From contig CBFGJG010000040.1 of NCBI GenBank assembly GCA_965649055.1, forward strand, positions 1-18,729: a stretch of 18,729 nt of DNA, given 5' to 3'. This stretch comes from a candidate division WOR-3 bacterium. GTDB lineage: Bacteria > Hydrothermota > UBA3072 > B12-G15. This document shows positions 6,001 to 9,000 of this stretch, piece by piece; positions within the stretch are counted from its first letter, which is position 1; every line of letters begins with the position of its first letter. The position numbers are program-made.

Positions 6001-9000
6001 ACATTTTACATAAGCAGGGTTCTAAAAAAACTAATTTCAAATTTTGAAAGAAAGAAAAATGTCAAATTAATTATTTCAAGTAATGAGGCAAGTGAAATTT
6101 TCAGGACAATAAAAGAGGTCATTTTACTTGGTATTATAAGCATCATCTCCTGTTCATTTATACTTTTTATATTTTATAGAAAGATGTTTGTCGTTTTTGT
6201 ATTCTTTATCTCCATCTTATTTTCAGCAATACTTACATTCTCAATCCTTTATTTCCTTGGGTTTTCTTTAAATTTTCTTACATTGAGCGGAATATGTCTT
6301 GGTTTTGGAATGCTTGTTGATAATTCAATTGTTGTCCTTGAAAATATATTGAGGCTTAAAGAGGAAAAGGTTAAAGATGCGGAAGAAAAAGGTGCAAAAG
6401 ATGTATTTATAGCTGTTTTTGGTGCAACATTAACAACCATAGCTGTCTATTTCCCATTTCTTTACTTCCAGGGTAAAACAAAGGTATTTTACATCCAATT
6501 TGCAGTTGCATCTACTATTTCTTTACTTTCATCAATGTTTGTCTCATTTACACTTATCCCAAGCCTATCGAGAAAGATTAAAGGAGGAAGAGAGATTAAA
6601 CATATTTATTATGAAAAAACACTGAAATTTTTATTAAAATGGAGATGGATTGTTATCACCTTAAGCATTCTTGCTGTTATTGTTTCTTTTTATTTCTTCA
6701 AAAATTATGTATATTTTGGTGAATTTTATGAATTTAGAGAAAGGAACGAATTGTTTATATATATTAGATTGCCAAGAGGCTCTGAAAGAAAAGAGGTAAT
6801 AAAGATTGTTGATAGATTTGAAGAGGAGATAAAGAAACAGGAAGGGGTTCAAGAATTTTTTACAAATATATACTCAAATCAGGGAAACATAAATGTTAAA
6901 TTTAAAAAGGGTTCAGAATGGAAAGGTGTATCTTTAAAAGAGAGGCTCGAGAACCTTTCTGTTAATTATGCAAACTGCAGGATAATAATATATGGCTTAG
7001 GTCCTGTTTTTTTCACTGGTTCATCAGGTATATCGAGTTTCCCTGAACTAACATTAAGAGGATACGATTGGTATGTTCTGAAATCTTTATCAAATATGAT
7101 ATGTGAAAAACTAAGAAAAAATCCAAGGATAGATGAGATAGATCCGAATTTTTCATACTATGGAAAACAGATGGAATACATACTAAATGTGAAGGACGAT
7201 ATATACTTTTATAATCTCAACCCTTATTATGTTTTCACTAAAATCAAGCCTTTTTATCAAAAAGAAATCGAAATAAATAACAGAATAATCCCTGTTAAAA
7301 TATTTAAAGATTCAATCATTTATATTGATAAAATCCTGAATGAAGAAGTAGATAAAGGCGTTTATTTAAGAGAGATAACTAATTTGACAGAATCTCATAC
7401 GCCACCAGAAATAGAGAGGGAAAACAGGATTTATAAGATGGATATTGCATATTTATATAAGGGACCATGGAAGTCAGCATATGAATTTAAAAAAGGATTT
7501 ATTCAGGCTATAAAACTTCCACCCGGTTTCACGCTTTCAGCAGCATCTTTTTATAGAGAGGAAGAAGGTATTAGTAAGAAGACAATAATAGTTTCTATTA
7601 TAATTTCAATATTTCTTTTATTCCTTATTCTTTCAAGCACATTTGAATCTTTAATCAACCCATTTTTGATTATTTTTTTAATCCCGTTTTCATTTATAGG
7701 GATAACAATAGTTTACATTTTTACTGGAAATACATTTGATACATCTTCCTTTGTTGGACTTATATTATTTACAGGTATAGCAGTGAATAGTGGGATAGTC
7801 TTGATAGACCATCTTTCAAAAGGTGATAATAAAGAAGATGAAATCATTAGGAGGTCTTCCCACAGGTTAAGACCTATTATGACCACTTCCTTAACAACAA
7901 TTGCAGGACTTTTTCCATTTCTGTTTCTCAAAACAGAAGGTATTCTTTTCTCAAAACTATCTTTAACAACCATTGGTGGGTTGATACTTTCCACAATCTG
8001 CAGTATTTTCATATTGCCAGTTATTTATTATTCAATAAATAAAAAATATAAAAATATTTGACATTTTAAAAAAAAATGTTATCTTGATTATAAAAAAGGA
8101 GTATCTATGAAAAGAACATACCAACCACATAATTTAAGACGAAAGAGAACGCATGGTTTTCTTGCGAGGATGTCAAGCAAAGGTGGGAGAAAGGTTTTAA
8201 AAAGAAGAAGAGCTAAAGGAAGATGGAAGATAGCAATTTAAAAAAAGAAGGACTTCCAAAAATTTTTAAACTTAGAACAAAAAAGGAATATAAAGAAGTC
8301 CTTGAAAATGGAAAGGTTATAAAAGGTTTTTTTTTGATTGCATCTTTCTTGAAGCGAATGAAAGAAAGTTTGGAATCCTTGTTGACAGGAATATTAAAGG
8401 TGGAGTTAAAAGGAATAAGATGAGAAGAAGGATAAGGGAGATTTATAGAAAAGAAAAATACAATTTGAAGAATGGGAAGATTGTCATAAGACTCCATAAA
8501 GAGGCACTTGATGCAAGGTTTAAAGAAATTCTTAATGAGTTTAACAGGATAAAAGGGATTATAAATGAATAAATTAGCCGTTTTTATAGTAGAAACATAT
8601 CAGAAGTTCGTATCCCCTTTCCTTCCACATTCCTGTAGATTTTACCCGAGTTGTTCAGAATACACAAAAGAGGCAATAATAAAAAAGGGTTTATTGAAAG
8701 GGATTGTCCTTGGTATTTACAGGATTTTAAGGTGTAATCCATTAAATAAAGGTGGTTATGACCCTGTTAAATAAAAATGTGAGGTTATATGAAAAATAGA
8801 ATGTTGAATTTTATCATTGCATATATTCTGATATTTGTCCTACTTCTTCTTTATCAAAACTATGTCGTGAAGAAAAGACAACCAGTTCAGAAAACCGAAG
8901 AAGTAAAAGAAGAACAGGTAGAGCAAAAGAATATAGAGATAGTTCAGAAGACAGAAGAGGTAGGCAAAAACATAGAAGAAGTTGTTTTTGAGAATAAAAA

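Follow-up and report, generated by a model that had tools for sequence, protein, structure and literature searches.

The RNase P protein gene rnpA (8223-8572, forward strand) was found divided over two overlapping reading frames in the 18,729-nt stretch of DNA analysed here (the window), with the break at a run of nine T's. An essential tRNA-processing protein would apparently be made only by a slip at this run, and this across a whole family of free-living bacteria whose genomes purge such runs elsewhere. On the sequences compared, this family-wide, obligatory frameshift in an essential gene is judged to be real; the mechanism proposed below is inferred. The genome of the window is referred to as G000, that of another genus of the same family as G001 (G228 in the initial annotation) and that of a relative outside the family with an intact rnpA as G025 (G225 in the initial annotation).

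A candidate sigma-70-like promoter for the operon (TTGACA-16-TATCTT, 8058-8085, forward strand) matched at 10 of 12 positions and is weak by itself, because three sites of that kind were found against 3.8 expected from shuffles. The genes rpmH, rnpA, yidD and yidC lie on the forward strand. rpmH, for ribosomal protein L34 (8107-8241; PF00468, E 1.5e-24), has a strong Shine-Dalgarno (SD) sequence (duplex -8.2 kcal/mol). The likely rnpA start is an ATG within the 3' end of rpmH (8223-8225) with a weak SD (duplex -2.8 kcal/mol); its position is common to the related locus L057, G001 and the intact gene of G025, where it is GTG. As the initial annotation had described, the N-terminal third of the protein is read in the zero frame (8223-8335; PF00825 positions 1-37) as far as GGT TTT TTT TTG, and the remainder, including the RNR motif, lies in the -1 frame (8336-8572; PF00825 positions 38-104, E 2.7e-13). 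This 3' segment scores above the TIGR00188 cut-off and aligns to solved RnpA chains from about residue 40 onward. The -1 frame is open from 8306 to 8572, with no start codon near the 5' end of the 3' segment. The T9 run occupies 8327-8335 (context AAA GGT TTT TTT TTG ATT) within the putative slip site GG-T9-GAT (8325-8338), which is identical in G000, L057/L058 and G001. Read without a slip, the gene runs from the ATG at 8223 through a zero-frame tail (8336-8423) to a TGA at 8421-8423 and gives a product of 66 aa; the tail is free of protein selection and its stop varies in position between species. One extra T at the run yields an ordinary RnpA of 116 aa, and this reading scored 104 bits over positions 6-112 with a profile of relatives.

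Full-length rnpA would overlap by 8 nt the start of yidD (8565-8774; PF01809, E 2.5e-29), which is followed by yidC (8789-10261; NCBIfam) and then jag, mnmE and queA, the usual operon context; rpmH-rnpA-yidD-yidC-jag-mnmE is also the usual bacterial gene order. The gene was assigned to RnpA on coverage of the whole PF00825 domain over the two frames, the RNR motif, the operon context and the presence of an rnpB partner. Bacterial RnpA (PF00825, TIGR00188) shares with it the sequence, the RNR motif, the order rpmH-rnpA-yidD-yidC and a type A partner RNA, but is otherwise encoded in one frame. No second copy of rnpA was found in the G000 genome.

The T9 break is not an assembly error, as the initial annotation had also held, since the same count was obtained across species, studies and assemblers. 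In data run X1, a single 822-nt contig covers 8207-9028 with zero differences to the window; it was built independently, yet X1 is possibly the source sample of the assembly. In data runs X3 and X4, which come from a single study, there is a relative about 88% alike with no frame-restoring indel in rnpA. Its rnpA indels among the rows listed, which did not include the letters of the run itself, are one whole codon and a one-in/one-out pair, so its frame offset is that of G000. Data run X2 has no coverage of the T9 site. The loci L057 and L058 (99.9% identical to each other, 77% to the window in DNA) and G001 (66% DNA identity) have GG-T9-GAT and the same break, which bears out the earlier observation of the same run in a second genus, and the zero-frame protein of G001 is recorded on 11 contigs from four sources. 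UniRef assigns a protein from a relative to candidate division WOR-3. Among 978 orthologue pairs, no comparable homopolymer break was seen elsewhere in G000.

Searches with the zero-frame products brought in further called proteins with the break, which is now supported in six or more sequence clusters where the initial annotation had two species. Zero-frame products that end in G-F-F-L plus an out-of-frame tail form the clusters P0003, P0004, P0005, P0006, P0007/P0008 and P0025, of which P0006, P0007/P0008 and P0025 lie beyond the three species whose DNA was seen; DNA letters at the site come from those three species and the other clusters rest on called proteins. All six pairs of tail and C-terminal protein fit one DNA as frame 0 and frame -1 readings, whereas the fit of a control pair broke down after 9 of 37 codons. 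The relative in X3 and X4 may be one of the six clusters or an additional one. P0026 (G-F-F-L-I, 65 aa) was rejected as a member, as it continues RnpA-like and failed the pairing test; so was P0027, an intact RnpA of 117 aa. A third relative's protein, earlier noted as the downstream part only, proved to be so (P0001, 76 aa, 74% identical), and another genus, g3 (database records RKZ18844.1 and RKZ23892.1), was seen as downstream-only called proteins (P0010/P0015 and P0011/16/17), which are suggestive of the same break. The two family genomes said to lack the region do so, and g3 is therefore represented at the site by proteins and not by DNA: the G002 contig (L052, G002:C18) terminates inside rnpA in adapter sequence, which we take to be Illumina Nextera adapter and thus assembly contamination, and G003 is without the region. 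A search of genome contigs for the locus returned one unrelated match and a search of viral contigs none; six of eight metagenome loci were unrelated or intact genes from other lineages.

Full-length frames are the rule elsewhere. The counts given earlier for the class, 19 genomes with open frames of 102-137 aa and 88 aa in G000 and G001, were reproduced. Over the phylum, 236 of 272 genomes had a PF00825 match (238 matches in all). Frames below 100 aa were those of G000 and G001, five cut by contig ends (G083, G096, G121, G160 and G212, which were rejected as breaks) and one weak second match below the cut-off; G240 was also rejected, its interruption being an N gap. Among the 236 matching genomes, this family has the sole internal break seen in rnpA; five long-frame matches (G092-G095 and G178) carry a '1 TGA' flag. 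No full-length RnpA of the family was found among the 8 matches from 167 candidates of 41-142 aa, a search of limited reach; the sole full-length protein among those 8 is a member of the cluster of G025 and thus not of the family. G025 reads GGT TCT TTT TTT ACA at the site, which confirms in its DNA the G-S-F-F-T noted before and is a plausible ancestral state, one substitution away from T10.

Comparison of the sequences indicates that both halves of rnpA are under purifying selection. Against L057, pS was 0.79 and pN 0.24 in the 5' part, and 0.48 and 0.19 in the 3' part. The stretch after the run, compared between the same two, gave pS 0.277 above pN 0.094 when read in the -1 frame, and pS 0.056 below pN 0.152 when read in the zero frame. 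No further stop or indel was found in either half in the three species. The 5' part is weakly conserved against G001 (pS 0.62, pN 0.55) and the N-terminal part from the G001 genus alone has no Pfam match, a point against a working full-length gene. RNase P RNA, reported as present in the initial annotation, was found as a full-length type A rnpB in 4 of 4 family genomes. The protein-only substitute HARP occurred in 7 of 61 genomes searched and in 0 of 4 family genomes (75-98% complete), and was rejected as a replacement of RNase P in the family. Both rnpA and rnpB are described as indispensable in the text seen of PMC10941002. Given selection on both halves, an intact rnpB, the lack of HARP and this indispensability, full-length RnpA is very probably made, with the run as the place of the slip.

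The run is placed by the frames themselves. The L057 -1 frame becomes open a mere 3 nt ahead of it, homology to relatives in the -1 frame begins a few codons past it, and T9 falls in the single interval in which the two frames are both open and the homology passes from one to the other. When run lengths of 4, 7, 9, 10 and 13 were scored with a profile of 49 intact relatives, T10 had the highest score in each of the three species (104-106 bits, compared with 16-22 for T9), exceeding T7 and T13 by just 4-6 bits; the T10 reading also gives the 14-residue spacing of G025 and of family f2. As the gene is one base short there and the break is kept in distant species, a slip at the run would be needed to make the whole protein, and the run appears clearly required for expression.

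The run is conserved beyond background in genomes that avoid such runs. The comparison of G000 with G001 covered 1.49 Mb of the latter, out of about 1.9 Mb, and gave 978 orthologue pairs. Synonymous differences between the two have reached or nearly reached saturation (pS 0.74-0.82 for the C-terminal part of rnpA, rpmH and yidD), and 0.34% of 937,589 aligned 15-nt windows were identical. None of 33 aligned runs in intact G000 genes (0 of 24 A9, 0 of 9 T9) kept at least 8 bases in G001, one further run having fallen in an alignment gap; only 9 of the 33 were T9, and 26 are reckoned uninformative on T runs specifically. When 94 x 30 runs of at least nine were compared all against all, the rnpA pair ranked first, matching at 63 of 120 flank positions (the next pair had 53 and the mean was 35), and rnpA is the sole T9/A9 site clearly common to G000 and the part of G001 that was covered (1.49 Mb). 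The 69 sense runs of at least nine A or T in simple ORF calls agree with the some 70 counted before. Against codon shuffles, G000 coding sequence held 49 A9 (176 expected), 17 T9 (60 expected) and no T10 or longer (about 36 expected); G001 showed the same drop at nine and no run of ten in 1.49 Mb. The drop at nine or more was seen in all three codon phases, and T7 in the X_XXX_XXX phase was barely depleted (218 against 245; 133 against 153). When all 1,594 strand-counted A/T runs of at least eight in G000 were scanned, 43 emerged as raw join candidates, and by eye almost all of these looked like ordinary gene junctions; a sufS-like break on C5 was a scaffold gap.

The initial annotation had left the mechanism at ribosomal frameshifting or transcriptional slippage. 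Recoding stands, and the present tests favour transcriptional slippage with one U added at T9, which we regard as the best fit and as somewhat probable. On this view rnpA is functional although its DNA lacks one T. At the T9 run, RNA polymerase would sometimes realign and add one U; an mRNA with U10 would then be read normally into RnpA of 116 aa (join G-F-F-F-D-C-I-F-L), and one with U9 would give the 66-aa product as a dead end. A minority of mRNAs would provide the full-length protein, enough if RnpA is needed far below the level of L34. Production of that protein, the transcriptional nature of the slip and its rate are all read from sequence. As to origin, an ancestral Gly-Ser/Phe-Phe-Phe stretch may have become T10 and lost one T in the family ancestor.

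An A/T run of about 9 nt lies at the frame junction, as expected of a slippage gene. Bacterial polymerase is reported to slip efficiently at nine A or T (PMC5009743, in part), and E. coli polymerase to prefer insertion of U on poly(T) (PMC6260861, in part). The drop at nine in all phases matches the signature described for slippage-prone bacteria in the part seen of PMC1088944; since that source notes that replication slippage can also produce avoidance of long runs, such avoidance is no proof of a slipping RNA polymerase. In E. coli, L34 is given as exceeding RnpA in abundance about 130-fold (PMC9945441, in part), and a minority of corrected mRNAs could suffice because RnpA is of low abundance and its start already has a weak SD.

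A -1 ribosomal frameshift on U_UUU_UUU (or U_UUU_UUG), with the mRNA keeping U9, would give the same protein and is a possible if rather unlikely alternative. The run begins at the third codon position, the phase for a tandem slip, and T_TTT_TTT is a valid heptamer; the opening of the L057 -1 frame just 3 nt before the run would suit it, as would a very low rate if the protein is of low abundance. At 16-23 nt upstream there are SD-like stretches rich in purines that cover a conserved Gly codon, yet they vary in position and strength (best sites -4.8, -8.8 and -6.3 kcal/mol, scored with no shuffle control). The lineage does use ribosomal +1 shifting, prfB in G000 and G001 keeping the classical SD and CTT TGA site (L162:1500-1540, L163). 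No conserved stem-loop was found in the 80 nt downstream in three species (z -0.17, 0.38 and 0.75) with a model that excludes pseudoknots, and RNA structure was rejected as a stimulator of the slip. Seven T's would be enough for the ribosome, yet nine are kept although the end position could vary silently, a weak argument from few lineages (TTT makes up 71-74% of Phe codons and GGT 35-47% of Gly codons); the T7 run in phase is not avoided, and in E. coli U_UUU_UUU is described as shifting far less well than A_AAA_AAG (PMC5009743, in part). Transcriptional and ribosomal shifts could also both act.

Re-initiation in the -1 frame, with an N-terminally shortened RnpA working alone or with the zero-frame peptide, appears improbable. 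Gene callers and NCBI do annotate downstream proteins of 50-80 aa, some of them named RnpA, and the zero-frame stop overlaps an ATG in G000 and L057 (ATGA, 8420-8423). It fails because each species has a different called start (giving 50, 70, 76, 77 and 80 aa) and the fragments miss the first ~40 residues of solved RnpA; G000 has no ATG, GTG or TTG before 8420, which is already inside the RNR region, and the invariant T9 and conserved N-terminal part would be left unexplained. Variation in run length at the DNA level, with T10 cells functional through phase variation or in a mixed population, is quite improbable. T9 runs are reported as prone to replication slippage (PMC1088944, in part) and contigs drop rare variants, but the working allele of an essential gene should be the consensus, and the break is in every assembly seen; no indel variant is listed at the site in X1, X3 and X4, nor was a full-length family protein among the 8 matches of the 167 candidates. 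It is very improbable that rnpA is a pseudogene and RNase P RNA acts alone or with another factor: loss of rnpA happens in the phylum, since family f17, with no rnpA match, carries HARP, and one genus shows faster N-terminal change, but pN lies well below pS, no further lesion has appeared in three species with saturated synonymous sites, and HARP is missing from the four family genomes. The sequences thus show neither relaxed selection nor the further lesions of a decaying gene. That a T10 run was repeatedly miscounted in sequencing or assembly is scarcely credible, even if some platforms misjudge homopolymers and X1 may be the source sample of the window, given the same count in different species, studies and assemblers, the 11 contigs from four sources for the G001 product and the lack of a comparable break among the 978 orthologue pairs.

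Transcriptional slippage at rnpA would resemble that of Shigella flexneri mxiE, where, according to the descriptions seen, two overlapping frames need one added U in a T run and the start of the downstream gene is tied to the long product. mxiE is a plasmid-borne virulence regulator of one genus, whereas rnpA, maintained throughout the family, belongs to the universal and essential housekeeping genes; slippage is proven for mxiE and inferred for rnpA. dnaX with A9/A10 (Thermus thermophilus; GeneTack two-ORF genes) likewise has, in the sources as seen, a nine-base run in an essential chromosomal gene, and in its two-ORF form the long product needs the slip; however, both dnaX products are functional subunits, whereas the unslipped rnpA product has an unselected tail of variable length. 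Rescued genes of Buchnera and Blochmannia are described as tolerating the loss of one base in a homopolymer through 12-50% corrected transcripts (PMC5009743, in part). Those endosymbiont genomes are tiny, rich in long poly(A) and carry several breaks, whereas the 2-Mb genomes here purge runs from nine upward, and the sole site clearly shared between G000 and the G001 sequence compared is that in rnpA. Thermus rnpA overlaps rpmH (Feltens et al., 2003, as cited in part of PMC9841429) and is also unusually expressed from the rpmH mRNA, but by two competing start codons and no frameshift, a different device from the T9 break.

The initial annotation had called the event programmed. The need for the run in expression stands; selection for the frameshifted state itself, rather than a mutational trap, is unproven. 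Conservation implies that the run cannot be lost, from which it does not follow that the break is useful. The ratio of T10+ to T9 was 6 to 89 in G000 and 0 to 30 in G001. By a rough estimate, with T10 present about 5% of the time and a silent change at one of about three sites needed to make it stable, some one escape would be expected over the divergence of the family, so the absence of repaired frames is not decisive. Tentatively, and with less than even confidence, the slip might be a selected dose control: rnpA is needed at about 1/100 of the level of L34 from the same mRNA, and nucleotide pools or temperature could tune the slip, which might also be linked to translation of yidD. If so, rnpA would be added to the few non-mobile genes of bacteria in which recoding is conserved, and would be one where life depends on the recoding; such recoding is described as rare in non-mobile chromosomal genes (PMC5009743, in part). 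In this unstudied phylum, the T9 site could serve as a natural and simple reporter of polymerase slippage and as a way to test for selection on low RnpA dose, and the 50-80 aa 'RnpA' database entries from this family are misannotated fragments. No report of a recoded rnpA was found in the literature searched (titles and openings of abstracts, with most subscription papers outside the search); the terms rnpA and RNase P are absent from the first 300,000 of 449,034 characters of a 2016 review (PMC5009743) and from the text and two of three supplement files of the GeneTack paper (PMC3711429).

Several further observations were made on RNase P and its operon in the phylum. In the sister family f2 (G004-G023; for example L030 and L032-L047), rpmH was detected in 0 of 20 genomes (62-98% complete), and rnpA directly follows a promoter-like TTGACA motif in the 11 loci with upstream DNA shown; it looks as if this family has lost bL34 as a whole. 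HARP (TIGR03875) was present together with rnpA in 5 of 5 genomes of family f9, and without any rnpA match in 2 of 2 genomes of f17 (f9 and f17, L067-L073); a replacement of RNA-based RNase P by HARP is possible there. In family f26, 0 of 7 genomes had an rnpA match. G025 gave no RF00010 match though 95% complete and with an intact rnpA, its RNase P RNA gene probably being unassembled.

Upstream of rpmH, where dnaA often sits in other bacteria, the window has an efflux locus with an adaptor gene and two tandem RND permease genes (62-8061). Elsewhere in the genome, an A11 run (G000:C57:4555-4565, reverse strand), one of six runs of at least ten, lies at the beginning of a 1.7-kb ORF that has a lipoprotein-like leader and no start codon and directly follows the end of the upstream gene. 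At the far end of the window (13272-18729) lie the CRISPR genes cas6, cas3' and cas3'' and a large ORF; cas6 is separated from cas3' by sixA and a pair of small ORFs.
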